A model generated the notes under the pieces. That model ran no database searches. It saw nothing but the letters and a program-made list of their open reading frames with translations, and was not told the origin of the DNA. 64,000 nucleotides of DNA from Clostridia bacterium (lineage in GTDB: Bacteria; Bacillota; Clostridia; Christensenellales; CAG-138): positions 8,227 to 72,226 of the forward strand of contig JAFSPW010000057.1 of assembly GCA_017451295.1 (NCBI GenBank), written 5' to 3'. Below are positions 6,694 to 33,289 of the stretch, piece after piece (positions within the stretch are counted from its first letter, which is position 1; every line of letters begins with the position of its first letter). The position numbers were made by a program, and so were the translations under genes.

Positions 6694-6829
6694 ACGGTTC
6701 ACTCCCTCTGATGCGATGGTATCGTTCTAACGCATCTATAAGTATAGTACCACAGAATACCGTTCTTGTCCTTCCTTTTTTCAAAATTTTTCCGTGAGTT
6801 TTCTTTTTGCATGTTTTGGCTATCTTTCC

Positions 6830-6858
6830 TTGCATCGACTCAAGAAAACTGCTATATT
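6830..6858 (+). promoter_or_regulatory. sigmaA-type promoter for the nitroreductase gene
   Basis: TTGCAT (6830-6835), 17 nt spacer, TATATT (6853-6858). Confidence 0.5.
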
Positions 6859-6887
6859 TATACCATCTTTTTTATAGGAGGCAGACC

Positions 6888-7412: not shown

Positions 7413-7414
7413 CC

Positions 7415-8548
7415 CTATTCCTGCTTATCCGAAGCGGTGGCTTTGAGCCGCCGCTTTTCCAATGCCGGCAGCAGATAGTCCTGGTACAGCAAGTCCAAAA
7501 TGGCCACCGCAGGAATGGCCAGCAGGATGCCCAAGATGCCGAACATCCGTCCCCCAACGATAACGCCGACAAGAATCCACAGACCGGACACCCCCAGGGA
7601 GTCCCCAAAGAGCTTGGGCTTTATCACATATCCGTCCAGCCCTTGCAGAATCAGGGTGAAGATAAGGAAGGCCAAAGCGTGCCAGGGGTTCACCAGCACC
7701 AGCACAAAGGCGCCGATAACCGCCCCAACCACCGGCCCAAAGGTGGGAATCAGGTTGGTGATGGCCGCCACAAAGGACACAAGACCCACATAGGGCAAGC
7801 CCAGGATGCCCATAAACACCGCATTGCTGATGCCCACAATCAGGCTGTCCAACAGGTTAAATACGATGTACCGGTTCAAAATTCCGTGGCACCGGGAGAG
7901 AAAGTCCGATATGTCACCATACTGCTCCTTGCCGACCAACGCCTTCAGCAGCCGCTGCCCGCCTCGCTTGAGCCGGGGCTTGTCCGAAAGCAGATAGATG
8001 GACAGCAAAAACGCAATACAGAACTGAACCGCCCCCTTGCCAAGCCCTACGGAGGTGGTCAAAATGGAGGAAAGGTTGTTGCGGATATAGTCCGACACGG
8101 CGGTCAGGATAGCCTCGGAGGAGGCGATAAACCGGTCAATATTCAGCGCCGTGGCCAAGACCCCCCATTTATCCAGCAGTCCGTGAAGGGAGGCCAAATA
8201 TCCGTCCAGATTGCCGGCAAACAGGGTCACGCTCTCCACCAGCTGCGGAATCAGCATCAGCAGCAAAAATACCAGCAGCAGAATCACCGTGATGAATGCC
8301 AGCAGGTTAGAAAGAAACCGCCGGGTCTTCATATGCCGGATGGGCCGAAACAGCCGCTCATACAGCATGGCCAGAGGGTTCACAATGTAGGCAATCACCG
8401 CCCCTAAGATGACGGGGGAGAAGTAGCCCACAAAGGTGCCCACGCTCTTCCAGAACGCCCCCCAGCGAAGCAGCAGCACCAGCACGATTACGGCAATGGA
8501 GCCGGCCACGGCGTTAGGGTACCAGGGAGCCTTGCGATAGTTTTTCAT
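7415..8548 (-). CDS. AI-2E family (PerM-like) transporter
   Basis: Start trimmed to MKNYRKAPWYP. The protein is multi-TM with a family-like C-terminal region (GLWILVGVIVGGRMFGILGILLAIP). Confidence 0.8.
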   Translation of the reverse strand: MKNYRKAPWYPNAVAGSIAVIVLVLLLRWGAFWKSVGTFVGYFSPVILGAVIAYIVNPLAMLYERLFRPIRHMKTRRFLSNLLAFITVILLLVFLLLMLIPQLVESVTLFAGNLDGYLASLHGLLDKWGVLATALNIDRFIASSEAILTAVSDYIRNNLSSILTTSVGLGKGAVQFCIAFLLSIYLLSDKPRLKRGGQRLLKALVGKEQYGDISDFLSRCHGILNRYIVFNLLDSLIVGISNAVFMGILGLPYVGLVSFVAAITNLIPTFGPVVGAVIGAFVLVLVNPWHALAFLIFTLILQGLDGYVIKPKLFGDSLGVSGLWILVGVIVGGRMFGILGILLAIPAVAILDLLYQDYLLPALEKRRLKATASDKQE

Positions 8549-18696: not shown

Positions 18697-19167
18697 TCAG
18701 CTTCCCTGAATAATCGACAGGAGCTTGCGTTTGCAGGCCCCCAAATAGCCTCTCAGCCGCAGCAAAAAGAAGCGAACAGGGTACCAGCGGCACCAGGTGT
18801 TCACATACAGCCGGTAGGGAAGGGAAGCAAAGTTCAGGGGCTTTGTGTCCCGAATGACCCCGGTGAGTATGCCCAGAATCTGCCCCTCGGCGACCGTCTC
18901 GCCGCTGATGCAGTTGTCGCCCACAATCCAGTAGGTCCCGTCCTCGTTCACCTTCAAAATCCTGTGCAGCACGTAGGCCCCCTCGGGACCCGGCCGCCGA
19001 AACAGCACCGCCTCCAGGTTTTTACACCGCTGGGGGCCCTTCTTTTCAATGATCATCAGGTCCCGCCCCTGTCGCAGCAGCGGCATCATGCTGACCCCCC
19101 GGTTGGTGTACACGAGGCGTCCGTCCCGTTCCAGCAATTCTTCAAATGTGGCAGTGGTCTCGTTCAT
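18697..19167 (-). CDS. S24/S26-family (signal-peptidase-like) serine peptidase
   Basis: GVSMMPLL (Ser nucleophile context) and HRILKV (general-base Lys context). 156 aa. Confidence 0.65.
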   Translation of the reverse strand: MNETTATFEELLERDGRLVYTNRGVSMMPLLRQGRDLMIIEKKGPQRCKNLEAVLFRRPGPEGAYVLHRILKVNEDGTYWIVGDNCISGETVAEGQILGILTGVIRDTKPLNFASLPYRLYVNTWCRWYPVRFFLLRLRGYLGACKRKLLSIIQGS

Positions 19168-19170
19168 AGC

Positions 19171-19908
19171 CTATCTTTTGAGCATGGCGGCGGAGCTGAC
19201 CTTAGCCGCCTCCAAATCCATATTGCACCACAGCCGATAGAGTTTGACCCCCTGGCCGATACGCCCCACCAGCGGGAGGGTTTTTAGCATGCCGTCCCCG
19301 CCCTCGGGCCGATAGGCCTGGCGAATAAGGTCCGCAAAGGCCTCGCTGAAGCTGATTTCCTCGATGCGGTTGCTCTCTCCCCGATGGATGATGCAGATAG
19401 CCTGCAGGGGCAGAATCTCGTTGGTGCCGTAGTTCTCCTTGCCCTGCCAGGGGTCAGCGCAGCAAAGCACCTGCCCGTCCGGTTCCAGGGCCAAAAAAGG
19501 CTTGTCCCCGTTTAGCACATGGGCCTCGGGCAGCAGCTCAAGCCAGAGCCGTGTGTGGGTGGTCTTTCCCGTGCCGGAGGGAGCCGTGAACATATAGGCC
19601 CGGCCGCCCACAGCCAAGCAGGACCCGTGGAACAACAGCTTGTCCTTCATCAGCAGCGCATCGGCCACCTTGCGTAAGATGGCCTGGGTCTCCATGTAGC
19701 GGTCGGAATACCGCCGGGGAGGCACCCCGTCCAGCTCGTCCTGGAGCCTGGCCTGCTCCCGTTCATAGGAAAGGTCCTCCGGGGAGATGGCAACGAAAAG
19801 TTCCGCCGGGCCGGAGGATAGATAGTCCCTAAAGAAGGACCGGGTATCCGGGCACAGGGCGCTGATGCCTATCTTCACGCCGCAAAGCTCTATGCTAAAG
19901 TCGTGCAT
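19171..19908 (-). CDS. HPr-kinase-related (HprK C-terminal-like) P-loop protein
   Basis: Start trimmed to MHDFSIELCG after AAAGGA. It has the P-loop APSGTGKTTH in the context LFHGSCLAVGGRAYMFTAPSGTGKTT, which is typical of the HprK-like kinases found in RiPP clusters. Confidence 0.6.
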   Translation of the reverse strand: MHDFSIELCGVKIGISALCPDTRSFFRDYLSSGPAELFVAISPEDLSYEREQARLQDELDGVPPRRYSDRYMETQAILRKVADALLMKDKLLFHGSCLAVGGRAYMFTAPSGTGKTTHTRLWLELLPEAHVLNGDKPFLALEPDGQVLCCADPWQGKENYGTNEILPLQAICIIHRGESNRIEEISFSEAFADLIRQAYRPEGGDGMLKTLPLVGRIGQGVKLYRLWCNMDLEAAKVSSAAMLKR

Positions 19909-19941
19909 TGGCTGTCCTTTCTGTCTGTGTACCTTGCAGCT

Positions 19942-19970
19942 ATTATAGTGGAAAGCCGGTTGGTTGGCAA
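19942..19970 (-). promoter_or_regulatory. near-consensus promoter for the HprK-like/S24 peptidase genes
   Basis: On the minus strand: TTGCCA (19965-19970), 17 nt spacer, TATAAT (19942-19947). Confidence 0.65.
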
Positions 19971-19996
19971 GCGGGGAAATCCCTCCCGCATGCACA

Positions 19997-20025
19997 TTGA
20001 CAGCCGGGGATATTTTTTCTATACT
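19997..20025 (+). promoter_or_regulatory. near-consensus promoter for the PqqD-ABC exporter genes
   Basis: TTGACA (19997-20002), 17 nt spacer, TATACT (20020-20025). It sits back-to-back with the minus-strand promoter. The palindrome GCGGGGAAATCCCTCCCGC lies between the two -35 boxes. Confidence 0.65.
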
Positions 20026-20073
20026 GTGTATATACAATCATGGGGCAATGGGCCCCGGAAACAGGAGCAAGAT

Positions 20074-20343
20074 ATGCAACTTCATCCAGACTTTGTTTTG
20101 CAGCAGATGCCGGGGGATATGGCCGTGCTGGTGCCCACCGGCGAGGCGGGGGAACGGTATAGGGGCATCGTCCGCCTCAACGAAACCGCCGCTTTCATCG
20201 TGGAACGGCTGCAGCAGGACACCACCCGGGAGCAGATTGTTGCCGCCCTGGGGGAGGAATACGAAGGGGACGAAAAGGACTTTTTTGCCTCCGTGGACCA
20301 CACCGTCAGCGAGCTCAAGAAGGTAGGCGCCATCCTTGACTAA
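20074..20343 (+). CDS. PqqD-family protein (RiPP recognition element-like)
   Basis: 89 aa, with ATG after AGGAGCAAGAT. PqqD-like pattern MAVLVPTGE...IVRLNETAAFIVERLQQDTTREQIVAAL. Confidence 0.7.
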   Translation: MQLHPDFVLQQMPGDMAVLVPTGEAGERYRGIVRLNETAAFIVERLQQDTTREQIVAALGEEYEGDEKDFFASVDHTVSELKKVGAILD

Positions 20344-20401
20344 GGAAGCCAAAAGAGAAGCACCGAAGCAGGACCGGCGCCTGATTTCCAAGGAACGGGG
20401 C

Positions 20402-22120
20402 ATGTCCCTGTCCACGCTTCGCTGGCTGTATCAGGTTCCCGGCAAGAAGCGGGGGTACGTGCTGTCCCTGTCGGCCCTGTATGCCCTGACGGGCTCCATG
20501 GGCGTGGTCTATGCCCTGCTGATGCGCGCCATTGTGGATAGCGCCGTGGCGGGGAACATGACCGCCTTTTGGGAAAATGTGCTGTACATCGTGGCTTTGG
20601 TAGCGGTGCGCCTGGGGCTCAACGCCCTCATCCGGTGGCTGGACGAGCAGGCCAGAACGGACCTCGAGAATTGCTTCAAGCAGCGGCTGACAAAAAGCAT
20701 CCTCAAAAAGGACTATGCCTCCGTCAGCGCCATCCACTCCGGGGAATGGATGAACCGCCTCACGAGCGACACCGGCGTGGTGGCCGGGGGTTTTGTGGAC
20801 ATTCTGCCGGGCTTGGTGGGCACCCTGGTCCGCCTTGTCAGCGCCCTCGTCATGATTATCGCCCTGGATGCCTGGTTTGCCTATATCCTTCTGCCCGGAG
20901 GTCTGCTGCTGGTAGGGCTGACCTATGCCTTTCGCAAGGTGCTCAAACGCCTCCACAAGTCCATCCAGGAGGCGGACGGCCGCCTGCGTATCTTCTTGCA
21001 GGAGCGCATCGGCGGGCTGCTGATGATTAAATCCTTCGCCGCCGAGGAGGCTACCGAGGCTGCCGCAGCGGACTATATGCGCCGGCATAAGGCCGCCCGT
21101 ATGCGCCGCCTTCGCTTCTCCAACTTCTGCAACGTGGGCTTTGGCGCCGCCATGCAGGGCATGTATCTGCTGGGCGCCGTCTACTGCGCTTACGGTATTC
21201 TAAACGGCACCGTGTCCTACGGCACCATGACCGCCGTGATGCAGCTTATCGGCCAGGTCCAGGCGCCCTTTGCCAACATCAGCGGCTACCTGCCCCGGTT
21301 CTATGCCATGTCCGCCAGTGCCGAACGGCTCATGGAGGTGGAAAACTTTGCGGACGACGGCACCGAAAACCCCCTGTCCATGGAGGCTGTCAACGGCTTC
21401 TATGAGCAAGAGCTTGCGGCGGTGGGCCTGCAGAATGCGTCCTTTACCTATTATGCCCAGGCCGAAAGCATGGACCAGCTAAATAAGGACAACATGCCCG
21501 TGGTACTTAGGGACTTTTCCGTGGAGATTTCCAAAGGGGAGTATGTGGCCTTTACGGGTCACAGCGGCTGCGGCAAGTCCACGGCCCTGAAGCTCTTCAT
21601 GTGCATGTACCGTCTGGACGGCGGCAGCCGCTATATCCGCACCACCGACGGCATGGAGTGGGACCTGTCCCCCGATTGGCGGCGGCTCTTTGCCTATGTG
21701 CCGCAGGGGAACCAGCTGGTCAGCGACACCATCCGCCGCACGGTGGCCTTCTCGGATGTGGAACGGGCGGGGGAGGAGGAAGCCCTTTGGCAAGCGCTGC
21801 AAATCGCCTGCGCCGATGAGTTCGTCAGGGAGTTGGAAAACGGCCTTGACACCAAGCTGGGGGAGAGGGGCACCGGCCTTTCCGAAGGCCAGATGCAGCG
21901 CATCGCCATCGCTCGGGCCATCTTCTCCGGCAGCCCCGTGCTGCTGCTGGACGAAGCCACCAGCGCCCTGGACGAGCAGACGGAGGAACGGCTCCTTCAG
22001 AACCTGCGGAGCCTGACGGACAAGACCGTCCTCATCGTCACCCACCGCCCCGCCGCCCTGAAGATCTGCGACCGGGTCCTTCACTTCACGGAGGATGGGG
22101 TAGAGACGGCGAAAAGCTGA
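20402..22120 (+). CDS. ABC exporter, fused permease/ATPase
   Basis: N-terminal six-TM domain plus an NBD with Walker A GHSGCGKST, signature LSEGQMQRIAIARA and Walker B VLLLDEATSALD. There is no C39 peptidase domain. Start at ATG 20402 after AAGGAA; the alternative TTG at 20336 overlaps pqqD. Confidence 0.88.
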   Translation: MSLSTLRWLYQVPGKKRGYVLSLSALYALTGSMGVVYALLMRAIVDSAVAGNMTAFWENVLYIVALVAVRLGLNALIRWLDEQARTDLENCFKQRLTKSILKKDYASVSAIHSGEWMNRLTSDTGVVAGGFVDILPGLVGTLVRLVSALVMIIALDAWFAYILLPGGLLLVGLTYAFRKVLKRLHKSIQEADGRLRIFLQERIGGLLMIKSFAAEEATEAAAADYMRRHKAARMRRLRFSNFCNVGFGAAMQGMYLLGAVYCAYGILNGTVSYGTMTAVMQLIGQVQAPFANISGYLPRFYAMSASAERLMEVENFADDGTENPLSMEAVNGFYEQELAAVGLQNASFTYYAQAESMDQLNKDNMPVVLRDFSVEISKGEYVAFTGHSGCGKSTALKLFMCMYRLDGGSRYIRTTDGMEWDLSPDWRRLFAYVPQGNQLVSDTIRRTVAFSDVERAGEEEALWQALQIACADEFVRELENGLDTKLGERGTGLSEGQMQRIAIARAIFSGSPVLLLDEATSALDEQTEERLLQNLRSLTDKTVLIVTHRPAALKICDRVLHFTEDGVETAKS

Positions 22121-22202: not shown

Positions 22203-23795
22203 TTACAGGCTGAAATCCGCCGTGTTGTCGCGCTGATAGGAACACCAGTTGCCGTTTTCGATCAGTTCTTCGCGGGCAATCAATCGAAGCAGCGCATCGC
22301 ATTCGCCGAAACGGTCGATGCGATCGAGGACGGCGGCATAAAAGCGCTCCATTTTGACATGATCGGATGTTGTGCGCGAAAGCGACAGGCGTCCGTAATA
22401 GTTTGAGATAAACAGCGTTGCCGCCGAAATGCTGCCGAGCAGCAGCTTGGACAGCGTACGATAGAATTCGGCGTTTGCGATTTTCTGCGAAAACGGCAGC
22501 AAGCCGCCCCAAATGAGCTCGAAGAGCAACACCGCAAGATACAGCAGAATACTAACCCAAAGAGCAACGCGGACGATGCGTTCGCTCCCCTTGTGCGTGC
22601 GCTTTGACCAACCGACGGACCGTTCGTGATACCTGCGCTGTGCGTCGACCCATGCGTCACGGATGCGATTTGACCGATCCGGCGGAATGCCGACAGACAG
22701 AACTTTCAGCGCGGAGGCGACCCATCCGGTTTCCGTCTTGCCGGTCCACGGCAAAACATCGGCGGCGGAAATGCCGCTTCCGGCATAGCGTAAAAACGCC
22801 TGCACGCGCAGTCCCTCCGCCAGCATCCGATATTCGAGATAGCGCCGGTGCGAAGCAAAGCGGTTCCCGTACCGCTGCACAAGCCATGCAAGCAGCAGCA
22901 TTCCGCCGCAAACGAGAATCATTCCGTGCAATTCGGCTTCGTCATATAGAAGAAACGCAATCGTGATGACCGTGCTGATGATCGCAAGCGCGGCAAGAAT
23001 GCGGCGGTACTGTTTGGCAAAACGAACGCTCAAAGAATCCGCCTTTGCATACAGAGTTTCCATACGGTCGAGCTGCCTGTCCGGTTCCCGATCTGACGGC
23101 AAAAGCGCAGATTCGGATGCGGGCGCTTTCTTCGCCAGCCGGTTGAACTCGTCGGTCCGGGACAGCGTTTCGTCAAAAGCGGCACGGTCCCCGAGAAAAC
23201 GCACCGCTCCGGCGGCACTCGTTTCGTCACCTTTCCGCGGCGAAAGGATATGCAGCACGGGACAGCAGCCCCCGAGCGGAATCGAATCTTCCGGTGAATA
23301 ATCGCCGTCCAGAGCGCAATGCACGATCGCCGCCGTGCCGCAGTCTGAAGCGGGCGATTCCGCTCCGTCCCAAAGCGCGAGCAGCACATGGGCGTGCGAA
23401 GCAACATATACGCCCGCCTGCCGATACGCAAAGTCCCGATCCTTCGACGCGGGTGCGCGCTCCGTGTTGGGCGCAACAAAACAATCTTCCGCCGCGTCGC
23501 AAAGGGCCCGGAATGCGGGAAGCGCTTCCCCGGAAAAGTCCTTTTCATATTCCGTCCGATCCATCGGAAAAACGGCGATCAGCGACACACAAAGCGCCTG
23601 TGCGACCTCGGCGCAGAGGCGATCCGCACCGTCCGCAAGGCTGTTTTGCATCACGATTTTGGAATGCGGGCACCTGCTTTGCAGTGCCATGAGTTCCTGT
23701 TTGACTGCGTTGTATAAAACGTCGCGGTCCTCCGGACGGATGTCTCGATGTCCCGTTACGCCGACGACGATCGGGATCGTATCCTGCTCTGCCAT
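22203..23795 (-). CDS. SLOG-like (YpsA/LOG/DprA-type Rossmannoid) domain fused to four TM helices (2 x SLATT-like 2TM modules)
   Basis: 530 aa. The N-terminus has IVVGVTGHRD...SLADGADRLCAEVAQAL...AHVLLALWDG..SDCGTAAIV, matching the SLOG pattern G-TGhR / G-A-G-D / ..D.....G. TM helices: ILAALAIISTVITIAFLLY, GMILVCGGMLLLAWLV, IVRVALWVSILLYLAVLLFELIW, LLLGSISAATLFISNYY. SD AAGGAG. Domain calls are by eye. Confidence 0.6.
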   Translation of the reverse strand: MAEQDTIPIVVGVTGHRDIRPEDRDVLYNAVKQELMALQSRCPHSKIVMQNSLADGADRLCAEVAQALCVSLIAVFPMDRTEYEKDFSGEALPAFRALCDAAEDCFVAPNTERAPASKDRDFAYRQAGVYVASHAHVLLALWDGAESPASDCGTAAIVHCALDGDYSPEDSIPLGGCCPVLHILSPRKGDETSAAGAVRFLGDRAAFDETLSRTDEFNRLAKKAPASESALLPSDREPDRQLDRMETLYAKADSLSVRFAKQYRRILAALAIISTVITIAFLLYDEAELHGMILVCGGMLLLAWLVQRYGNRFASHRRYLEYRMLAEGLRVQAFLRYAGSGISAADVLPWTGKTETGWVASALKVLSVGIPPDRSNRIRDAWVDAQRRYHERSVGWSKRTHKGSERIVRVALWVSILLYLAVLLFELIWGGLLPFSQKIANAEFYRTLSKLLLGSISAATLFISNYYGRLSLSRTTSDHVKMERFYAAVLDRIDRFGECDALLRLIAREELIENGNWCSYQRDNTADFSL

Positions 23796-23808: not shown

Positions 23809-25839
23809 TCAATCGAGTTTGTAAATCCGCAGACCGTCGAACTTACGGATCAGCTTCAGCATAGAATTGAATGGTTTCCAATCCTTGCCCTGATCCTTCT
23901 CGGACAGGTTGAGATAGTGCCGCGCAATCTCCAGTTCCCCAAAATCGCCGTTCATACACAGCTTGTGCTGCCGCATCTGCTCCCGCAGCGCATAGCGGTT
24001 CGGCTCGTCGTCTGTCGTTACGGTCTCATACAGGCTTCCTGCCGTCCAGCCCATCGCGCGGTGTGCGCGCACCCAGCGGGCATGCTCCATCGGCGCGAAC
24101 ACGGCGGTCTGCTCGGGGGTGAATGCACGCAGCATTTCAAAGTCCACGGGGCGATCCGTATAGAAGCAGCCGATCGCGTTCAGATATTTCGAGAAGCTTT
24201 TGACCTGATTGATGTTGCTGAGCTGATATTCGAGCGACATCGTGTCAAAGTCGCGTTCGAGCTGTTCCACGGAAATCTCCTGTTCCCGCCCCTCATACCG
24301 GTAGCGTCCGTTGATTGCCACGGCAAAGTCGTACATGTGTAAAAAGCTGCTGCCGGACAGATAGGTATGCTTGCTTTTGCGATCTGCGGTGCGCAAAAAA
24401 GTCGTGATAAACAGCGGATAGCCGCTTAGATCGACGATCTTTTCAATGTCCGTTCGGAAACGCTGCTCCTTTTCCGCCATATCGCTGTACGCTTTGAGAC
24501 GCGGCGGCGCATCCTGCCGGTCGCCCTGCTCCCATGCGCGGTAGCGCGCTTCATATTCTCCGATCTTTTCGGACTCCTCCGCGTCGAAGCAATAGAGCGC
24601 ATGGATCATGCCTCTGCCGAAATCGAACTCAGCGTCCATCGGATGCAGTTCAGTGCGTGAATTCCGACCGTAAGCGGTGCGATCCCAGCATTGCAGTTCG
24701 TCGCACAGCATCAAAAGGTATGCAAGCGGATGCAGCTCGGCTTTCAGCGGCGGCTTGCACTTGTCCCTGTCCTTATAAAACGCGATCGCGAATTTAAAGA
24801 GACTGTTGTGCAGCATGATCGCGGTCAATGCATCGATGTGCGCTGCGGTCAACGCCTCTTCGCCGAGCACTTCGCAAAGCTCCTGATACAGCCGTGTTGC
24901 GGAAAAGTATGCATGATCCATAAAGTACCCGAACCGGTTCGGCTCGGTCGGCTTGCGGCGGATCGTATCGAGCAGGTCATCCTCAAAAATGTCATATGCC
25001 GTACCGAGGCGCTTTGCAATGCCGTAGGCAAGCAAATCTTCGACGGACTCGAATGGACGGGAAAACAGCTTTGCAAAGTGCGCCTTTTGCGCGTCGCTCA
25101 TGCCGGACAGATAATCGAGATCGCGATACGCCAAAAACAAGCTGCCCTTGCCGCGCTTTTTGCGATCGACCTCAAAATAAGCCAACACCTGTTCAAACGG
25201 GATCTCAAACGGATAGCCGATATCATGAAACAGCGCGGTCAAGCCCCAATATTCGAGAAAGAATGCCGCAGCACGATGCTCGTCCCGTTCCGGCGTGAAC
25301 CCGTAGAACGCCTGAAATGTCTTTCGGAAATCCTCGTTTGTTTCAAAGATTGCAAGACCGAGCGCAAACACATAGACCGAGTGCGAATAATGATCGCGAT
25401 GCTTCATCAGCAGCGAGCTTGCGTTCGATTCAAACTCCGACAAGAGCTCGATCATCTTGCTCGACCGCCCGTAAGCGCCGAGGAACATCTTCAAAAAACA
25501 GTAATAAACGGTATAAGCATCCTCGGCAACGCCGGAGTCGATGAAGTTCTCCAGCTCACGCTCAAGGCAGAGTCGGTCGATGTCCATCTGCATATTGTAC
25601 GGGATCTGATTCGGATAAAAGCTTGTGCCGAGATACTGCCCGGTTTCGTCCTCCCGCTTCGCCGTCTCGGATGAAAAGCGCAGTCCCTCGCACCGCTCGT
25701 GCAAAAACCGCAGCGCGGCGGACTTCAGATCGCTGCCCGTTCTGCCCGCGCCGAACATCGCCGGTTCAAACGGACCGACATCCACGTTATAGCGTTCTTT
25801 GTTGATCCTTCGCATCTGTTCCAAAGCCGTGTATGCCAT
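23809..25839 (-). CDS. HD-superfamily phosphohydrolase with RyR-like C-terminal domain
   Basis: 676 aa with an H...HD...D set: HRDHYSHSVYVFALG, LTALFHDIGYPFE, LLMLCDELQCWDRTAY. The C-terminus FAPMEHARWVRAHRAMGWTAGSLYE resembles the RyR repeat (E-x-W...GW-x-G). SD GGAGG. Confidence 0.65.
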   Translation of the reverse strand: MAYTALEQMRRINKERYNVDVGPFEPAMFGAGRTGSDLKSAALRFLHERCEGLRFSSETAKREDETGQYLGTSFYPNQIPYNMQMDIDRLCLERELENFIDSGVAEDAYTVYYCFLKMFLGAYGRSSKMIELLSEFESNASSLLMKHRDHYSHSVYVFALGLAIFETNEDFRKTFQAFYGFTPERDEHRAAAFFLEYWGLTALFHDIGYPFEIPFEQVLAYFEVDRKKRGKGSLFLAYRDLDYLSGMSDAQKAHFAKLFSRPFESVEDLLAYGIAKRLGTAYDIFEDDLLDTIRRKPTEPNRFGYFMDHAYFSATRLYQELCEVLGEEALTAAHIDALTAIMLHNSLFKFAIAFYKDRDKCKPPLKAELHPLAYLLMLCDELQCWDRTAYGRNSRTELHPMDAEFDFGRGMIHALYCFDAEESEKIGEYEARYRAWEQGDRQDAPPRLKAYSDMAEKEQRFRTDIEKIVDLSGYPLFITTFLRTADRKSKHTYLSGSSFLHMYDFAVAINGRYRYEGREQEISVEQLERDFDTMSLEYQLSNINQVKSFSKYLNAIGCFYTDRPVDFEMLRAFTPEQTAVFAPMEHARWVRAHRAMGWTAGSLYETVTTDDEPNRYALREQMRQHKLCMNGDFGELEIARHYLNLSEKDQGKDWKPFNSMLKLIRKFDGLRIYKLD

Positions 25840-25851
25840 GGTGAGTCCTCC

Positions 25852-28800
25852 TTATTCGATTTCCAGTTCAAAGCCGTATTCGCCGCCCAAGGATCGGATC
25901 GCCTGCTGCATATTGTTCGATACGCACGCCGCGCGAAGATGCCGCAGCGTCAGAAGCGGCGAGATGTCGGTAAGCTCCGACGTCCACGACACCTTGATGT
26001 ACTCGAGTTCGGGGTGCTGCTCGATGAAGGTCTTAAATGTTTCGTTGGTGAAGCGGCAGTTGCCCGCATGGAGTTCGTGGATTTTCGCTTGCTTTACGGC
26101 GTCCATCCAAAGCGCGCAGTCCGTGTTGAACACATTGAGACTCTGATACTCCGGCACGGCGGACAGCACCGCATACTGCTCGTCCGGGATCTTCCCCTGC
26201 AAATTATCTATGCTGAGAACAAAATATGGCACATTGCCGTCCTCGTCCGGCGTCATACAGAACGTATAGTCGATTTTGGCGATTGCGCTGATGTCCGAAA
26301 GATTGTTGCGGCTGATATTGAGATCGGTCAGATGCAAAAGCTTCTCAACGCCCTCGATCGAAGTGACCGTTTCCGTGTCCGCCACGTTGATGATCTCGAG
26401 CGACTTTAGATCAAACAGCGGCGACAGATCGGAAAGATTTGCCCAGTTGGCTTGGAACCGGCGCAGCTTTGCGGCCGTCTCGATCCCGCCGAGTGATTCG
26501 ACCGGCTGACCGTACAGATATAGCGATTCGAGGTTTGGAAGACGGGTCAAAAATCCAAAGTCGGTGATCTGCCCCTCCCCGATCGGGAAGCGCTCGCCGG
26601 TTGCGTTGTCGTGAATATACAAGTCCGGTTTGTCGCCGCCGTCCCAGTCCTCTTCGAGCCACAGGTCGCCCCACGGATCTTTCATCACATAGTTTCCGAA
26701 GAATCCGATCTCGCGCACGCGTGAGAGCACGTCATCCGGCAGGGCAACAAATTCGTCAACCGTCATCAGCGGGAAGTCGAAGGAGAGATTGCACTCTGCG
26801 GGGATCGCGCCGAGCGGCGCAAGATCGTCCAGCTTGAGTCCGTTCAGATCTGCCCATTGCAGCTTCTGCAGGTTTTGGATGCCTTGTATGCTTGTCACGC
26901 CGGTATATTGCAGCTTCAGTTCTTCTAGGTCCTGCAGCGTAAACACCGGGGATGCATCCATCAGGGTCGGTGTGAATGTAAGTTCGAGTTTCTTCAACTT
27001 CTGCAGATTCTGAATCCCCTCGATCGACGTCAGCGACTGATCGATCAGGTTCAGATGTTCGAGCCCGGTCAGCTTGGACAGCTTGGAAAAATCGGTCATT
27101 GTACCGGGGTGCTCGATTGCGATATCATGGCTGGGGTCACCGTCGTTCGACCGCAGCACAAAGGTCGGTTTGTCGCCGTCCCATTGCTGATCGAGCCAAT
27201 ACTCCTCCCAGGAGAAGATCACATCGCCGACTGCATGCAGATCCCTGACGCGGCTCAACACCGCGCTTGGCAGCGTGTCGAGCTCGTCAAAGGACAACAG
27301 CTCCACGTGCGGCTCGGCCGACTCCCACCATCCGTCCGGATACTCCACCTCGAAGTTGTCCAAAAGCTTGCTTTCCACAAGCAGCTCAGCCTGCGTCTGC
27401 AGATGAGCCGGCACCTTGAGATAGCGCCCTTTGTGCGCATAAAGCGGGGAAAGATCGGTCACGCCGTCCAGGTCGAACAGTTCGATGTAATAATTCTCCT
27501 TTTGAAAGGACGCGAGCGCCGACAGGTCCGTCAGATCAAAGATGCTTTCGAGCCGCAGCCGATCCGCGTGCAGCGCCGAAAAATCGGGCAGGGTAAACAG
27601 CTGTACCAGCTCCAGATTGTCAAAGGTTTTTTGCTCGATCGCCGACCAGTCGACCAGGCGCGAGCAGTTCTGCACGCGAAGCGTCGAAAGCTCGGGCAGA
27701 TGCTCGAGGCCGTTTAGGGAAGTGAGCAGCGGACAGTCATCCAGTGTCAACTCCTGGATATCCAGCGCGCGCAGCGTTTCGAGCGAGCGCACGCAGTGCA
27801 GCGTCAGACTGCGGCCGACCTCGGGCAGCTGCATCAAATCCACTTCGCCGTCATTGAGATTGGTCAAACCGTCGCGGTTCCAATATTCAAACTCTGCGAC
27901 CGGCGTGTTGTGAATGTAAGGCAGCGCGCTGCCGTTGCGATCCGTGATGTTCAGATAGCTGTATCGCGGCAGGGCGGCAAGTCCAGACCAGTCATCCACC
28001 TCGGAAATGCCGAAGGAAAAGGTGTTTTTGTTGACAATCTCCGACAGGAAATCGACGTCGTGCAGACCCGACCCGTAGATGGCAAGATCGTGGAGGCGCG
28101 GCAGCTTTACGATGGGAGAGATGTCCGCAAGATTAAAGACGCTGTTTAGGTGAACCTGCAAAATTCCCGTGCAGCTTTCGAGCGCGGAGATGTCGGAAAG
28201 ATGATCAAGCCCCTCGATATGCACGCGCCGCAGACTTGTATGATTCTCCAGACCTTTGAGGGAACGTACGCCGCGCGTATACCAAAGCTCGATTTCCTCA
28301 AGATTCTTTGCGTTACTGAGCCATGAAAGATCGTTCAGCGCTTCGTTGTGCAGATCGACATAATGCAGGCTCGTGTTGTCCGAAAGCGCGGACATGTCAG
28401 ATAGGTCTTCGCTTTGATAACCCACAAACAGGCGTTCAAGATGCAGCTTGTTTTCCAGTCCGTGCAACGATGTGAGTTGCGGCAGAGAGAACTCGACTGT
28501 TTCGAGTGCGGAAGATTCTGAGAGGAAACTGAGATCACGGTTTGCGCTGCCCTCGATCGTGAAATACTTCAGTTTCGAGCATTGCTTTAGACCGTCGAGA
28601 TTGAGGGCGGTATCGCTCCAATCGCCCCATAGATGGAGGGACGTGAGTGCGGGCGGCGCAAACGATGATAAGTCCTGCGGCATCGGCGATAGAAATTCCA
28701 AATGCACGTCGTTCAGGCGTCCGCAGCCGTTGAGCGGTGAAAAATCGGCGATGGTGTTGCCGCGGTATTGAAAGCAGCTCATCTGCGATCCAGTAACGCC

Positions 28801-29679
28801 CGAAAGATCGGTGATGCTGCAATCAAACAGTTCCAAAACGCCGAGATTCAAAAGTCCCGACAGATCGGGAAGCTCGCCAATGACTCGCACAAGCGTGATG
28901 AATTTTACGTTCTTCATGTACCGCAAAAAGTCGAGATCGTTCCACGCAGAAAGTTCGATCTCGTGTCCGTCCTCATTGCTGTACCAGCGCGCGATCCCGT
29001 CTTCTTTGGTGCGGTTTGCAAAGTACTCCGCGCCGATGCGCGCCCAGCCATTTTGCTCCGCAATCCCCTCATCACCGGTGAAGTAGTGCAGCGTATCGCC
29101 GACGATGATCAGCTCATAGACCTTATTTAGATCCTCGGCGGTAAGCCCCGCTTCGGAGGGAATGACCGGTTCCGCCGTCGGCGCGGGTGTGCTCTTTTGC
29201 AGCATCGTTTCCTTTGCGGGAAGCAGTTTTGTTGCAAGGAAGATACCTCCGGCGATCACGAGCGCGGCGGCAGCGGCCGCAAGGATGATCGGCAAAGGCT
29301 TTTTTGTTGCTTCAAACGGCTTTGCGGTTGCGATACGCTGTGCAAGCTCTTCTACGGAGTACCGTTCGGCGAAGATCGTGTTGCGGGAATACAGCGCGTT
29401 TTTCAGCAGCTCCGGCGGCGTTGAGCCGTCGAGGTTTATCGGCACCGTCTCCACGCCCTTGGCGTCATTGGCGAAGAACGTTTCCATAAGTGTGATGGCC
29501 TCGTTCAGCCGTTCGGACGTGAACAGCAGCATGACGCCGCTTTTGGTCGGCATTTCGCTTTCGTCTGCGATCTCAAATCCCTTTGCCCGCAGCGCATCGA
29601 GGATCGGTGCGACGCGTTCTTTGTCGGCTTCGGCAAACAGCGGGGACAACTTCTTTTTTCGGTATGCGACTTTTGTCAT
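25852..29679 (-). CDS. giant type-II membrane protein: diverged TIR-like N-domain, 1 TM, ~1100-aa internalin-type LRR ectodomain
   Basis: 1275 aa with no signal peptide. The TM helix LPIILAAAAAALVIAGGIFLATKLL lies around aa 127-150. Dozens of LxxLxxLxLxxxxIxDLSxL repeats follow (e.g. LEEIELWYTRGVRSLKGLENHTSLRRVHIEGLDHLSDISALESC). The N-domain aligns loosely with the TIRs of the two upstream paralogues. SD AAGGAGAC. Confidence 0.65.
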   Translation of the reverse strand: MTKVAYRKKKLSPLFAEADKERVAPILDALRAKGFEIADESEMPTKSGVMLLFTSERLNEAITLMETFFANDAKGVETVPINLDGSTPPELLKNALYSRNTIFAERYSVEELAQRIATAKPFEATKKPLPIILAAAAAALVIAGGIFLATKLLPAKETMLQKSTPAPTAEPVIPSEAGLTAEDLNKVYELIIVGDTLHYFTGDEGIAEQNGWARIGAEYFANRTKEDGIARWYSNEDGHEIELSAWNDLDFLRYMKNVKFITLVRVIGELPDLSGLLNLGVLELFDCSITDLSGVTGSQMSCFQYRGNTIADFSPLNGCGRLNDVHLEFLSPMPQDLSSFAPPALTSLHLWGDWSDTALNLDGLKQCSKLKYFTIEGSANRDLSFLSESSALETVEFSLPQLTSLHGLENKLHLERLFVGYQSEDLSDMSALSDNTSLHYVDLHNEALNDLSWLSNAKNLEEIELWYTRGVRSLKGLENHTSLRRVHIEGLDHLSDISALESCTGILQVHLNSVFNLADISPIVKLPRLHDLAIYGSGLHDVDFLSEIVNKNTFSFGISEVDDWSGLAALPRYSYLNITDRNGSALPYIHNTPVAEFEYWNRDGLTNLNDGEVDLMQLPEVGRSLTLHCVRSLETLRALDIQELTLDDCPLLTSLNGLEHLPELSTLRVQNCSRLVDWSAIEQKTFDNLELVQLFTLPDFSALHADRLRLESIFDLTDLSALASFQKENYYIELFDLDGVTDLSPLYAHKGRYLKVPAHLQTQAELLVESKLLDNFEVEYPDGWWESAEPHVELLSFDELDTLPSAVLSRVRDLHAVGDVIFSWEEYWLDQQWDGDKPTFVLRSNDGDPSHDIAIEHPGTMTDFSKLSKLTGLEHLNLIDQSLTSIEGIQNLQKLKKLELTFTPTLMDASPVFTLQDLEELKLQYTGVTSIQGIQNLQKLQWADLNGLKLDDLAPLGAIPAECNLSFDFPLMTVDEFVALPDDVLSRVREIGFFGNYVMKDPWGDLWLEEDWDGGDKPDLYIHDNATGERFPIGEGQITDFGFLTRLPNLESLYLYGQPVESLGGIETAAKLRRFQANWANLSDLSPLFDLKSLEIINVADTETVTSIEGVEKLLHLTDLNISRNNLSDISAIAKIDYTFCMTPDEDGNVPYFVLSIDNLQGKIPDEQYAVLSAVPEYQSLNVFNTDCALWMDAVKQAKIHELHAGNCRFTNETFKTFIEQHPELEYIKVSWTSELTDISPLLTLRHLRAACVSNNMQQAIRSLGGEYGFELEIE

Positions 29680-29714: not shown

Positions 29715-30890
29715 TTACGGGACTAAAATGACATCGAACGCCGCATCGTCCGGGAAGATCAGCGGCAGCATATCGATACTCACAGTCACGGTCTCAAGCG
29801 ATGGCTGTGCGTTCAGCACGGAAAGGTCGCGCACATTGCTGTGCTCCAGGTGAAGTGTTTTAAGGCTCGGCAGCGTAGGCAGCGTCGAAAGGTTCACGCT
29901 TAAACAACCCGCAAGGCTCAATTCGTTCAAAAGCACGAGCCGATCCAGTGCAGCAAGCGATTGTACCGGCTGCATCAAAAGGGAAAGAGTTTTGAGATAC
30001 GGCATTCGTCCGATCACGGAAAGATCCTCGACAGAACCCATCAGCGGCTTTGCGCCGTTTACGGTGTATGCGCCGGCTGTGTATTCGATTGCCGACAGAT
30101 CGTTCAGCACCATCGTGCCGCAAAAATGCAGTTCCGTCACGCCGCCGAGGTCGGACAGCTTTATATCGCCATCAGAAATACCCAGCGCATTGCGAACCGC
30201 TGCTTCCTGCTTTGCATCGGGGAATGTGACCGTATCCATGCCGGGAACATACGGTGTCGCCGTCGGCTCCGGCGTTTCGGTCGGCACAGGCGTGGCGGTC
30301 GGCGTCAGTCGTGCCGTAGGTACGGGTGTCGGGTTTGGCAGCAGATAGGCGTCCAATCGACCGGTCATAAGCGCATACAGACCTGCCGCTGCAGCGGCAA
30401 ACAGCAGAATCGCGAGCACAAGCATCAACCAATCAAAACGCAGTTTTTCAAACGGCTTGCGATAATATGCGCGCGTGATCTGTTTGCAGGAAAGAATGGT
30501 TTCGGCACGCGCAGATGCATCGGAACCGGACGAAAGCCTTGTGCATTGTGAAAGCAGATCGTTCCATTCTGCGTTCGGCGCCGTATCCGAAAGCGGCAGC
30601 AGCAGAACCGGCTTCTTCAGAACAAGCGCTGCTTCGATCTCGCTTCGGCAGTTGGGTGAAGCAAAAGCTGTTTTTGAAACAAAGAACAACACCATAGAGC
30701 AGCTTTGCATATGCTCTTCGATGTTCTTCGGCCAATCGCTGCCCGCCGGAATGCCCTCGTCGTACCACAGTCGCAGTTTGCGGTTGTGCAGCAGTGTAAT
30801 GACTTTGAGAACCGCCTCGGAATCGCGGTGCGAATAACTGATGAAAAGGTAGGGACGGCGACCCTCATATGGCTTAAAGTAGACGCTCAT
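29715..30890 (-). CDS. TIR domain - TM - Pro/Thr linker - LRR protein
   Basis: 391 aa. TIR signature PYLFISYSHRDSEAVLKVITLLHNRKLRLWYDEGIPAGSDW ... VLFFVSKTAFASPNCRSEIEAAL (C-x-x-E catalytic-Glu context). TM helix WLMLVLAILLFAAAAAGLYALM. Linker PNPTPVPTARLTPTATPVPTETPEPTATP. C-terminal LRRs. The start overlaps the stop of the upstream gene (ATGA). Confidence 0.75.
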   Translation of the reverse strand: MSVYFKPYEGRRPYLFISYSHRDSEAVLKVITLLHNRKLRLWYDEGIPAGSDWPKNIEEHMQSCSMVLFFVSKTAFASPNCRSEIEAALVLKKPVLLLPLSDTAPNAEWNDLLSQCTRLSSGSDASARAETILSCKQITRAYYRKPFEKLRFDWLMLVLAILLFAAAAAGLYALMTGRLDAYLLPNPTPVPTARLTPTATPVPTETPEPTATPYVPGMDTVTFPDAKQEAAVRNALGISDGDIKLSDLGGVTELHFCGTMVLNDLSAIEYTAGAYTVNGAKPLMGSVEDLSVIGRMPYLKTLSLLMQPVQSLAALDRLVLLNELSLAGCLSVNLSTLPTLPSLKTLHLEHSNVRDLSVLNAQPSLETVTVSIDMLPLIFPDDAAFDVILVP

Positions 30891-31696
30891 GATCCGCCTC
30901 CCGTCAGCACGATATCATACCGTTTAAGAAGCGGAGCGGCATCGACCGCGTTCGCCTGATTCAGTTCAATTCGGGAAAGATTGGAAAGCAGGGCAAACTC
31001 ATCCGTGCGTTCGGGTAAAGCGTCAAAACGAAGGGTCGTAACCGTTACAATCGATTCTTCGGTGATCGGTTCGCCGCTGAGCGCGTCGCGTACCGCTGCA
31101 GTCAGAACGGGATCGGAAAAGAAGACGGTATCAGCAGTTTTTTCAATCGATGGCGCACGAAGATGTCGCACAAGAACCGCTGCGCCGATCAGCAGAAACG
31201 CCGCGGCGACAATTGCGGCTGCAATCGCAAGAACAGCCTTTTTGCGAACGGGCAGCGGCGGACCGATCAACTCCTGCGAAAATCCGTCTGCATGGAGCAA
31301 TGCTGCTTCCGCCGCATCGACGCTGCGCGGCTTGATGTGCACTGCGCGCGAATCCAACCCCATGGACAGCGTGCTTTTTGCAGTATCTACGTCTACGCTG
31401 ATGATCGGGATGCTTTTCTCCTGACAAACGAGAACTGCGCTCTTTACCGCCTGATCCGTACGCGCACGCTTGGTTTGATACAGAACCACAAGCCGTGCCT
31501 TGCGCATACGCGCATCGCGCCGTTCGCGCTCTGCTACGGTGCCGCTGTGCCCCGTGGGGTACCAGATGCGGCAGCCGCGTTCGTACAGCCGTCGAAACAG
31601 CGGCCGCAACCGATCCCTATCCGCATCTGAAAAGCAAAAATACAGATACGGCTGATCGCCGCCGTACGGCGGAAAAAGCTCCGAAAACCTCGCCAT
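30887..31696 (-). CDS. TIR-like domain - TM - short LRR-like tail protein
   Basis: Start trimmed to ATG 31696 (MARFSELFPPYGGDQPYLYFCFSDADRDRLRPLFRRLYERGCRIWY) after GGGGAGG; the longer ORF would run through the promoter. TM helix AVLAIAAAIVAAAFLLIGAAVLV. The catalytic-Glu position appears to be substituted (..RTDQAVKSAVL). Confidence 0.6.
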   Translation of the reverse strand: MARFSELFPPYGGDQPYLYFCFSDADRDRLRPLFRRLYERGCRIWYPTGHSGTVAERERRDARMRKARLVVLYQTKRARTDQAVKSAVLVCQEKSIPIISVDVDTAKSTLSMGLDSRAVHIKPRSVDAAEAALLHADGFSQELIGPPLPVRKKAVLAIAAAIVAAAFLLIGAAVLVRHLRAPSIEKTADTVFFSDPVLTAAVRDALSGEPITEESIVTVTTLRFDALPERTDEFALLSNLSRIELNQANAVDAAPLLKRYDIVLTGGGS

Positions 31697-31730: not shown

Positions 31731-31774
31731 ATACTACCAAGATATATCGTATATGCAAATGCTGTTTCTGTCAA
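31731..31774 (-). promoter_or_regulatory. candidate promoter(s) of the TIR-LRR/HD/SLOG operon
   Basis: Two overlapping options on the minus strand. First: TTGACA (31769-31774), 17 nt, TACGAT (31746-31751). Second: TTGCAT (31753-31758), 16 nt, TGG-TAGTAT (31731-31736). Confidence 0.45.
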
Positions 31775-31896: not shown

Positions 31897-31921
31897 AAAG
31901 AAAAAGGCGCATTGCTGCGCC
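31897..31921 (-). terminator. second intrinsic terminator downstream of rplT
   Basis: On the minus strand: GGCGCA-gcaa-TGCGCC followed by TTTTTCTTT. Confidence 0.6.
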
Positions 31922-31949
31922 TTCGAGCCTCTTGTCTGATATTCAAAAC

Positions 31950-32072: not shown

Positions 32073-32432
32073 TTACGCCTTCTTGGCGGCCAGGGCGGTG
32101 TCCACCAGGGCCTTGAAAGCGGCCATATCGGTGACGGCGAGGTCAGATAGGACCTTCCTATTCACTTCCACACCAGCCAGCTTCAGGCCGTTGATGAGGT
32201 TGGAGTAGTTGGTGCCGCACAGCCGGGCACCGGCGTTGATACGGGCAATCCACAGGCGGCGATACTCACGCTTCTTGTTCTTGCGGCCCACGAAAGCATA
32301 GGCCATGGACTTCATCACCTGCTGGGAGGCAGCCCTATACTGCTTGGACTTGGCACCGAAGTACCCTTTAGCCAGGCGCAGCACCTTGCGGCGCTTCTTA
32401 ACGGAATTTACGCTTCTCTTAATTCTTGCCAT
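32073..32432 (-). CDS. rplT: 50S ribosomal protein L20
   Basis: MARIKRSVNSVKKRRKVLRLAKGYFGAKSK..., the canonical L20 sequence. Confidence 0.97.
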   Translation of the reverse strand: MARIKRSVNSVKKRRKVLRLAKGYFGAKSKQYRAASQQVMKSMAYAFVGRKNKKREYRRLWIARINAGARLCGTNYSNLINGLKLAGVEVNRKVLSDLAVTDMAAFKALVDTALAAKKA

Positions 32433-32665: not shown

Positions 32666-33175
32666 TTAATTCTTCGGTGCCAGAACCATATACATGTTTC
32701 TGCCTTCCTGCTTGGGGGGTCTTTCCTGACTGGCTACATCGGAAACCATGTTATAGAAGGTGGTCATAACATCTGCGCCGATATCGCCCCGGGTGATTTG
32801 GCGGCCCCTGAAACGGATGCTCACCTTCACCTTGTTGCCGTCCTGCAAAAACCGGGTGCAGGCCTTGGCCTTCACTTCCATGTCGTGCTGGTCGATGGTG
32901 GCGGAGAGGCGAATCTCCTTGATTTCGATGACCTTCTGGTTCTTGCGCTGCTCCTTCTCCCGCTTCATCATGTCGTAGCGATGCTTGCTGTAGTCCATGA
33001 GCTTGCAGGTGGGGGGCGTGGTGCTGGAGAGCTTGACCAAATCCAGCTCCCGCTCGTCGGCCAGACGCTGGGCGGCCCGGACATCCATGATTCCCAGCTG
33101 TACGCCGTTTTCGTCAATCAGGCGAACTTCCGGATCCCGGATTTGCTCATTGATAGGCAGTTCTTGTGTAGCGAT
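32666..33175 (-). CDS. infC: translation initiation factor IF-3 (non-AUG start, ATC candidate)
   Basis: The IF-3 sequence begins at [32 protein letters not shown] lies 9 nt upstream of ATC at 33175. The 21 codons upstream in the ORF track are non-homologous and lack an SD. Confidence 0.85.
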
Positions 33176-33289
33176 GACTGGACACCTCCTATAAAAAATG
33201 GCGGACGCATCTGCGCCCACCACAAGAATGATTCCCATCAGACCGTGCCTGATTCACTACATCGGCAGGTGAGAGGCGGGCGCCTCTGC
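33176..33289 (-). promoter_or_regulatory. infC leader, candidate L20-responsive leader/attenuator
   Basis: 114-nt untranslated region upstream of infC. A GC hairpin (GGGCGCAGATGCGTCCGCC) is followed by ATTTTTTAT just before the SD. The position matches the Firmicute L20 leader, but the structure has not been verified. Confidence 0.4.

Follow-up and report, generated by a model that had tools for sequence, protein, structure and literature searches.

A SLOG–SLATT membrane protein encoded beside transmembrane TIR proteins and an RyR-domain protein in gut Clostridia: a candidate effector of a TIR-made signal

A five-gene operon and its last gene

The stretch of DNA considered here, called the window throughout, comprises 64,000 nucleotides from a Clostridia bacterium (Christensenellales, CAG-138; assembly GCA_017451295.1, contig JAFSPW010000057.1, positions 8,227 to 72,226), and its minus strand carries a compact operon of five co-directional genes, which we name A-B-C-D-E, with gaps of -4, 35, 12 and 13 nucleotides between them. 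Our main subject is the last gene of the series, gene E (22203–23795), which encodes a 530-residue protein with an N-terminal SLOG domain, a SLATT module and a further pair of transmembrane (TM) helices. The three first genes encode membrane-anchored TIR or TIR-like proteins, and gene D a cytosolic protein with an HD-like region and an RyR domain. All genes and features of the operon described below lie on the minus strand.

Gene E is an ATG-started open reading frame (ORF) that is real and conserved beyond chance, as its homologues and an AlphaFold2 (AF2) model indicate. Among the scored candidates, 854 homologues have an E-value of 1e-3 or lower, and the best 120 are 51–95% identical to the window protein and nearly all full length. 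In an exhaustive profile search the relatives fell into 8,778 clusters (at 50% identity), and for 1,587 of these the E-value was 1e-30 or lower; relatives were found in 529 species-representative genomes. The best 80 loci all belong to rumen and gut Clostridia (Oscillospiraceae, Lachnospiraceae and Christensenellales), at 44–92% identity, and the DNA sequencing runs that contain the stretch are ruminant gut metagenomes. Since no relative was found in 50,697 phage genome records, an origin of the gene from a prophage or phage is unsupported, and this idea was dropped. A sequence search of the protein against the PDB returned nothing useful.

Two alignments were used for the analysis of conserved positions, a smaller one of 34 homologues and a wider one of 151 sequences that takes in relatives less than 50% identical. 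Residues G12, G15, H16, G56, D58, W142, D143, G144, G153 and T154 are invariant or nearly so in the first, and these columns hold in the second too. The five motifs on which the initial annotation of this DNA had based its description of the protein are all present in the ORF, on invariant or near-invariant columns: VVGVTGHRD (residues 10–18), LADGADRLCAEVA (53–65), LLALWDGAESPASDCGTAAIV (138–158), HRRYLEYRMLAEGLRVQAFL (316–335) and WVDAQRRYHERSVGW (382–396).

The N-terminal SLOG domain

The N-terminal part of protein E had been attributed to the SLOG superfamily by its motifs alone, and profile and structure comparisons now support this attribution, pointing to a domain of the YpsA/YAcAr type at residues 5–225 (23121–23783), the predicted sensor of a nucleotide signal. 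The Pfam model YAcAr aligns with residues 13–75 of the window protein below its threshold (E-value 7.6e-3, 16.5 bits against a cut-off of 28.2), and it matches 20 of the 34 homologues, the best with an E-value of 3.5e-5; one relative carries a precomputed match to PF10686. The AF2 model, built with an alignment (pLDDT, the predicted local distance difference test, 88; pTM, the predicted template-modelling score, 0.86), contains an alpha/beta domain at residues 9–221 where the pLDDT is mostly above 90. When this domain was compared with the PDB by Foldseek, the matches were DprA (5mll, 4ljr), ShosA (8zva), a molybdenum cofactor (MoCo) carrier protein (2iz7) and LOG-type proteins (5zbl, 1weh, 1rcu), with probabilities of 0.96–1.0, modest E-values (9e-3 to 0.25) and TM-scores by target of 0.33–0.58 at best. 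Moreover, in a tblastn search of plasmids, residues 9–161 align with an annotated DUF1273 (YpsA-family) protein at an E-value of 3e-5. The conserved motifs of the domain are GxTGHR, GxD and WDG..GT, and residues G12, G15, H16, R17, G56 and D58 are kept in at least 85% of the 151 family members. A GxD/E motif is the signature of the YpsA clade (PMC6459960), and in protein E it corresponds to G56-x-D58.

The same comparisons allow another reading, where the SLOG domain would be a LOG- or DprA-like enzyme that makes or destroys the TIR product, and the four TM helices would mainly anchor or scaffold it beside the TIR receptors. Some SLOG families are in fact hydrolases (LOG), LOG proteins are among the structural neighbours just listed, and the invariant polar residues H16, R17, D58, D86, H136, D143, T154 and R187 could form an active site; papers of the Aravind group cite Burroughs et al. 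2015 for the prediction of both roles of SLOG domains (PMC6459960). We nevertheless regard an enzymatic SLOG domain as quite improbable. The LOG motif PGGxGTxxE is incomplete in this protein, with Ala in place of its Glu in the window sequence, the SLOG domain of ThsA is a proven receptor, and the conserved SLATT module, together with the juxtamembrane residues Y319, R323, E327, R330 and Q332, indicates a functional membrane part.

Two membrane modules

The C-terminal half of protein E was described at the outset as two pairs of TM helices, each followed by Arg/Tyr-rich helices, and the AF2 helices (residues 240–286, 292–313, 315–337, 379–428, 442–470, 472–496 and 500–523), the hydropathy profile and the charge pattern all agree with this description. 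Hydropathy is strong for TM1 (1.97) and TM3 (2.28) and only moderate for TM2 (0.98) and TM4 (0.92), and Lys and Arg counts place the loops with the Arg/Tyr-rich helices all on the cytoplasmic side. A four-TM protein with both termini inside the cell fits this pattern.

The first pair, with TM1, TM2 and a conserved YxxYRxLAExxRxQ helix, corresponds to a DUF4231/SLATT module at residues 249–334 (22794–23051). Over these residues the window protein matches Pfam DUF4231 (PF14015) with an E-value of 2.5e-4 and a score of 21.9 bits, slightly short of the cut-off (24.7), while 23 of the 34 homologues match the same model (best E-value 9.2e-8). PF14015 is also precomputed on many relatives, a 68%-identical homologue is named by NCBI as a DUF4231 domain-containing protein, and the NCBIfam model SLATT_3 aligns with protein E at an E-value of 0.029. 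The second two-TM module and the C-terminal helices (residues 379–530; 22206–22661) are defined by the AF2 model, hydropathy and charge pattern, and contain their own conserved residues, W382, Q386, Y389, E426, G454, Y466, E509, E513 and W517. Residues 373–530, however, gave no match to family models, and the proposal of a SLATT/DUF4231-type C-terminal half is supported for the first pair of helices, the second not being detectably SLATT. An internal duplication of the two-TM module could not be demonstrated by hhalign, which compared the two modules with a probability of 1.3% (34 sequences) or of 17.6% at an E-value of 1.4e-3 (151 sequences).

Profile and model evidence thus supports a protein composed of a SLOG domain, a SLATT module and an unclassified two-TM module. 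From the analogy with other proteins of this kind, we infer that it may be gated by a ligand and may permeabilise the membrane.

Three membrane-anchored TIR proteins

Gene B (29715–30890) encodes 391 residues with, according to Pfam and TM prediction, a TIR domain (residues 16–101), a TM segment at about 153–177, a Pro/Thr linker and leucine-rich repeats (LRR). The Pfam matches are TIR_2 (E-value 5.6e-18) and ThsB_TIR (7e-5). The predicted catalytic glutamate, Glu84 (codon 30639–30641), belongs to a motif S-x-N-C-x-S-E whose S, N, C and E are shared without exception by the 25 orthologues of B that were compared.

Its two companions are more divergent. The ORF of gene A, whose stop codon overlaps the start of B by 4 nucleotides, extends to 31780, and the likely start is the ATG at 31696, giving a protein of about 269 residues (30887–31696) with a TIR-like domain, a single TM segment (178–209) and a short ectodomain. 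The N-terminus of A aligns with the TIR domain of B with an hhalign probability of 99.1% and with Pfam TIR_2 at an E-value of 0.01. Gene C (25852–29679; 1275 residues) has a degenerate TIR-like domain at residues 1–125 (hhalign probability 94.4% with the TIR domain of B), a TM segment at 127–155 and a large ectodomain of about 1,100 residues of internalin-like LRRs (LRR_4, E-value 5e-24). Neither A nor C has a conserved Glu at the catalytic position. B alone retains this residue, and it is predicted to be the enzyme that produces the signal.

The initial annotation had already paired protein E with TIR proteins. That linkage stands, while two features of the operon had escaped notice: the TIR proteins are transmembrane receptors, and the product of gene D contains an RyR domain.

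An RyR-domain protein encoded by the host

Gene D (23809–25839) lies 13 nucleotides upstream of gene E and encodes 676 residues where no TM segment was predicted, as in a cytosolic protein. It has 2,155 homologues, all of them unnamed. At its C-terminus, residues 573–676 (23812–24123) form an RyR (R12) repeat domain with invariant E585-H586, W589, H625 and D653. As a single sequence, protein D retrieved nothing useful from the PDB, and only its profile recovered RyR repeats (6uhi, E-value 6e-12; RyR2, 1.6e-8; the bacterial 3nrt, 8e-7); in a 575-residue subfamily of D the Pfam RyR match has an E-value of 2e-14. Phage RyR-domain proteins bind or hydrolyse the cyclic ADP-ribose (cADPR) isomers known as 2'cADPR and 3'cADPR, and the residues involved in RyDEP are H75, W78, H100 and D117 (PMC13232231). 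By spacing, and allowing for an insert of about 25 residues, H586, W589, H625 and D653 of protein D correspond to these four. Judged from its sequence, the C-terminus of D is therefore an RyR/R12 domain that keeps the ligand-contact residues.

The region at residues 147–390 (24670–25401) resembles an HD-type phosphohydrolase, with invariant H150, H153, H205-D206, H344 and D380. Pfam HD matches it weakly (E-values 0.013–0.034), and Foldseek found no significant match for the model of D (best E-value 0.41), with PDE2, PPX and TcrPDEC1 on top at low probability, so that the HD call comes from the motif alone.

A recurrent neighbourhood

How often these genes occur together was counted at 41 species-level loci whose E homologue has no less than 9.9 kb of sequence on its upstream side and 5 kb on its downstream side, the counts being based on tblastn and hidden Markov model (HMM) matches. 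A membrane-anchored TIR gene is present at 35 of the 41 loci, gene D at 32, both at 28 and neither at two. The question raised by the initial annotation, whether homologues of E neighbour TIR genes, is thus answered positively in Clostridia, and the Proteobacterial members of the family, described below, also lie beside TIR genes, in their case cytosolic ones. A first tblastn census with the window proteins had found a TIR partner at 29 of 47 loci, an undercount, and Pfam and phmmer then added a second TIR family; an iterated HMM for the TIR partners became too family-specific.

Loci of the main type carry three genes for TIR–TM–ectodomain proteins (22 loci) or four (5 loci), in the order A-B-C-D-E or D-A-B-C-E, and D and E are often adjacent or overlapping. 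Some loci that seemed free of TIR genes hold the second family, where the TIR domain, with a canonical SxWCxxE motif, is followed by a TM segment and a β-propeller in proteins of 900–1,100 residues. At the Clostridial loci, all TIR partners cross the membrane once and carry a large ectodomain that evolves fast. Across 18 complete loci the median identity to the window proteins is 64% for D, 51% for E, 46% for B, 40% for A and 33% for C, a ranking that suggests a conserved signalling core and diverging ectodomain proteins. At three loci (L001, L002 and L005) the same five genes stand amid unrelated flanking genes and, as the flanks differ between genomes, the operon appears to move. Outside the Clostridia, relatives of E on a Caballeronia plasmid (family HMM, E-value 1e-43) and in Rhodoferax adjoin genes for a cytosolic TIR protein and an nSTAND1–WD40 protein. 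With the LRR and β-propeller sets of Clostridia and the partner set of Proteobacteria, the link between TIR proteins and this SLOG clade recurs with three kinds of sensor.

This recurrence bears on the simplest objection, that protein E is not coupled to the TIR proteins at all, being a chance neighbour or a co-regulated gene that answers to another cue or serves another membrane function. Of the 41 loci, six show no TIR gene over a distance of 10 kb, two of them being without D as well, and one metagenome-assembled genome (MAG) carries a second, solitary copy of E (L051). Yet in Clostridia and Proteobacteria the linkage is seen again with TIR partners of three unrelated kinds, the genes are 13 nucleotides apart or overlap, and both E and D hold domains known to bind TIR products; an uncoupled protein E is, in our opinion, very improbable.

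Several loci show variations of their own. The second receptor set, of TIR–TM–β-propeller proteins (PQQ_2/WD40-like, 990–1,136 residues), was seen at L060 (1335–6364), L073 (7746–16534) and L080 (2707–7829), and L080 also encodes a secreted BspA-type LRR_5 protein (Pfam E-value 2e-235). At seven loci (L015, L017, L024, L041, L053, L063 and L072) the C-type gene has two or three paralogues in tandem, all upstream of the E homologue and each with an N-terminal TIR-like domain, a local expansion of receptor genes. The MAG with two paralogues of E is RUG14730, where one lies in a full D-A-B-C-E operon (L050) and the solitary one (L051) has no TIR gene or D within 10 kb. In the closest relative of the window (L007, with a protein E that is 92% identical), about 1.4 kb of additional DNA with an ORF of about 499 residues (6509–7957) is found between C and D; the window lacks it, and it may be an insertion. 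Directly upstream of E, L065 (8350–10004) and L064 (8461–10004) carry a radical-SAM/SPASM gene (Pfam E-value 4e-26) and an ORF of 169–206 residues, with a TIR–β-propeller gene divergent from both. Finally, the Bacillus subtilis plasmid pBS72 (L088, 3629–5483) groups a TIR gene with genes for a caspase and for a small SLOG protein that stands alone; this SLOG protein aligns with residues 11–163 of E (28% identity, E-value 4e-6), in an arrangement that resembles type IV Thoeris with a YpsA-like SLOG gene added.

Flanking genes and expression

Upstream of the operon lie rplT (32073–32432), for ribosomal protein L20, and infC (32666–33238), for initiation factor IF3. Consensus scanning alone gives a promoter-like site upstream of gene A (TTGACA-17-TACGAT, 31746–31774, minus strand) and, upstream of this site and after rplT, a terminator-like hairpin (31903–31924). 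Its position directly after infC and rplT suggests that the operon is inserted beside core translation genes and not in a recognisable defence island. Ruminant gut metatranscriptomes gave contigs of 92–99% identity that reach parts of each of the five genes, at low depth; this is weak evidence of expression, because DNA may have been carried over and, for some of the runs, an RNA origin is only a presumption.

Downstream of E, on the opposite strand, are a PqqD-family gene (20074–20343; Pfam E-value 1.2e-13) and a fused ABC exporter (20336–22120), and beside them two unassigned minus-strand genes, 19171–20037, with a GTGKTT P-loop-like motif, and 18697–19167. The layout of 18697–22120 resembles a small cluster for the maturation and export of a peptide, of the kind of the ribosomally synthesised and post-translationally modified peptides.

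Relation to known systems

The name SLATT was reportedly given by Burroughs, Zhang, Schaffer, Iyer and Aravind (Nucleic Acids Res 2015) to a "SMODS and SLOG-Associating 2TM effector", said to have been predicted as a nucleotide-gated pore, and the same work is said to have predicted TIR–SLOG associations as well. Later papers from the Burroughs/Aravind group restate SLATT as a two-TM effector associated with SLOG and SMODS. As far as we could find, the published accounts of this SLATT/SLOG network mention neither membrane-anchored TIR–LRR receptors nor an HD–RyR partner.

To our knowledge, the TIR sensors of known bacterial TIR systems (Thoeris types I–XI) are cytosolic. Among these systems, several share parts with the operon of the window. 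In type I Thoeris, ThsA (SIR2–SLOG) uses a SLOG domain as the receptor of a TIR-made messenger, as protein E would, and the output there is SIR2 where in protein E it would be SLATT and four TM helices. Type III Thoeris, compared by description, combines several TIR proteins, three as in the operon, with a DprA-type SLOG effector, ThsD, and in both the SLOG domain is of a non-STALD kind. Type VII Thoeris (the TIR protein ThsB and ThsH, with canonical cADPR as signal) is likewise a TIR enzyme with a SLATT membrane effector, and ThsH is believed to form oligomers that breach the membrane once an ADP-ribose (ADPR)-derived signal has bound; however, ThsH is annotated as SLATT only, with predicted ligand pockets between SLATT protomers, whereas protein E adds an N-terminal SLOG domain and an extra two-TM module. 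A recent preprint provides the biochemical frame: Thoeris TIR domains produce cADPR isomers, cADPR itself or His-ADPR, 3'cADPR is a ligand of ThsA's SLOG domain, and ThsH responds to cADPR and is modelled as a membrane-spanning oligomer (bioRxiv 10.64898/2025.12.03.692087).

A matching description is in Table S2 of the same preprint, which lists "SLOG and 4TM" effectors beside TIR genes in Streptomyces sp. GKU 895 and Candidatus Nitrospira nitrosa COMA1 (Yirmiya et al. 2025, bioRxiv 10.64898/2025.12.03.692087). Compared by description only, these predicted TIR-signal-responsive proteins match E in architecture and in TIR adjacency. The idea of E as a unique new TIR partner was therefore dropped, and to call it a distinct effector solution, as was done when this DNA was first annotated, overstated the case. 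The two listed systems differ in being two-gene operons whose TIR protein we would expect to be cytosolic, whereas here three transmembrane TIR proteins and an HD–RyR gene accompany the effector.

For gene D the nearest parallels are RyDEP and the phage RyR (R12) proteins, with a PF02026-type domain and a His/Trp/His/Asp set as in D (PMC13232231). Unlike RyDEP, D is host-encoded, stands inside a TIR operon and is fused to an N-terminal region of about 570 residues with the HD-like motif. Two eukaryotic likenesses are analogies. TRPM2, an ADPR-gated cation channel with a SLOG-like MHR1/2 region, also sets a SLOG-fold sensor on a membrane permeation module, and TRPM8, TRPM4 and TRPM2 appear among the full-length Foldseek matches of E at low confidence, but the comparison gave no homology of the membrane parts (E-value 6e-3, with by-query and by-target TM-scores of 0.19 and 0.12). 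Toll-like receptors also unite an LRR ectodomain, a single TM segment and a cytoplasmic TIR domain in one protein; the TIR receptors of the operon have the opposite polarity, with the TIR domain N-terminal, and B is predicted to be an enzyme and not an adaptor scaffold.

A proposed pathway

Protein E carries a SLOG domain and protein D an RyR/R12 domain, both apparently of kinds known for binding TIR-made ADPR derivatives. On these grounds, and by analogy with Thoeris, we think that E is probably a membrane effector gated by an NAD-derived TIR signal, in a Thoeris-like operon of five genes. An extracellular ligand on the LRR ectodomains would cluster the TIR domains of A, B and C, whose assembly would complete the NADase site of B, and B would then make an ADPR-derived messenger of the cADPR-isomer class. 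Once the messenger had bound to E's SLOG domain, the change would pass through the Arg/Tyr-rich juxtamembrane helices to the TM helices and the protein would open or oligomerise, making the membrane permeable to ions and leading to depolarisation and growth arrest or death, as proposed for the SLATT effectors of CBASS and type VII Thoeris. The RyR domain of D would bind the same messenger, with two options for what follows: D may destroy the signal by an RyR glycosidase and an HD phosphoesterase activity, as an off-switch, or the messenger may turn on the HD domain, making D a second effector.

A number of observations weigh against this proposal. The Pfam scores of the window protein are under the curated cut-offs (YAcAr 16.5 against 28.2 bits, DUF4231 21.9 against 24.7), the Foldseek E-values of its SLOG matches are around 1e-2, and the HD assignment of D is weak. 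SLOG domains can be enzymatic, as in the LOG family, so that a sensor role is not required, and at six of the 41 loci no TIR gene lies within 10 kb. Neither of two "SLOG and 4TM" systems cloned in Escherichia coli protected it against phage (bioRxiv 10.64898/2025.12.03.692087). Finally, the flanks are housekeeping genes, rplT and infC upstream and the ABC exporter downstream, with no obvious defence island, PADLOC v2.0.0 found no match for C, D and E, and a distribution over 529 species, with 44–92% identity at the best 80 loci, could fit a physiological role as well as immunity.

These last points belong to an alternative that keeps the same parts and the same messenger and changes the outcome, where E would be a reversible ligand-gated ion channel, TRPM2-like, with a physiological function, the cue being sensed outside the cell by the LRR or β-propeller ectodomains (host glycans, neighbouring cells and the state of the envelope are candidates) and converted into a flux of ions, and the signal being ended by D. 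In its favour, the sensors face outwards, unlike known Thoeris TIR proteins; the operon is chromosomal, among housekeeping genes and unmatched by PADLOC, with D and E strongly conserved across those 529 genomes; a dedicated RyR module that degrades or sponges the messenger suggests a signal that can be reset; and TRPM channels top the full-length Foldseek list of E, weakly (E-value 6e-3, probability 0.6). But SLATT modules have so far been linked to conflict systems and cell-killing effectors, three or four TIR receptor paralogues per locus with fast-changing ectodomains are typical of immune recognition, and flanks that vary between genomes speak for a mobile operon. A reversible channel thus seems unlikely to us, and we retain a membrane effector of a TIR signal as the preferred interpretation.

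Implications

The effector concept itself is known, and what looks new is its context, with TIR receptors at the cell surface and a host RyR-domain partner. Three aspects appear undescribed in the literature searched: TIR partners that cross the membrane once and have an ectodomain of the LRR or β-propeller kind, the grouping of three TIR proteins of which one is catalytic and two are degenerate, and the coupling of the effector with an HD–RyR gene of the host.

These features permit a broader reading, speculative and advanced here as a possibility, of an "outside-in" TIR pathway in rumen Clostridia. Receptors of Toll-like shape would signal through a cADPR-type messenger to the RyR protein D and to the SLOG-gated channel E, in what could be the prokaryotic equivalent of the TIR/CD38–cADPR–RyR/TRPM2 axis, perhaps even one from which parts of that axis came, and the first TIR system of immune type to be triggered externally. 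The ligand may be an adsorbing phage, a competitor or a host molecule, and the RyR domain of D and the SLOG domain of E, whose fold is common with MHR1/2 of TRPM2, may have their relatives among the targets of cADPR and ADPR signalling in animals.

Should the pathway operate as we infer, bacteria would have a TIR system that reports events at the cell surface, and the "SLOG and 4TM" class, so far only predicted, would gain a natural and abundant test case in 529 species, mostly of ruminant-gut Clostridia. It would also put a host-encoded RyR domain in a TIR operon, soon after binding and cleavage of cADPR isomers had been demonstrated for the RyR domains of phages, which makes it possible to ask whether cellular RyR domains sense or terminate such signals, and which molecule a YpsA-type SLOG domain reads. 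The answers would bear on the evolutionary origin of the animal channels gated by cADPR and ADPR.

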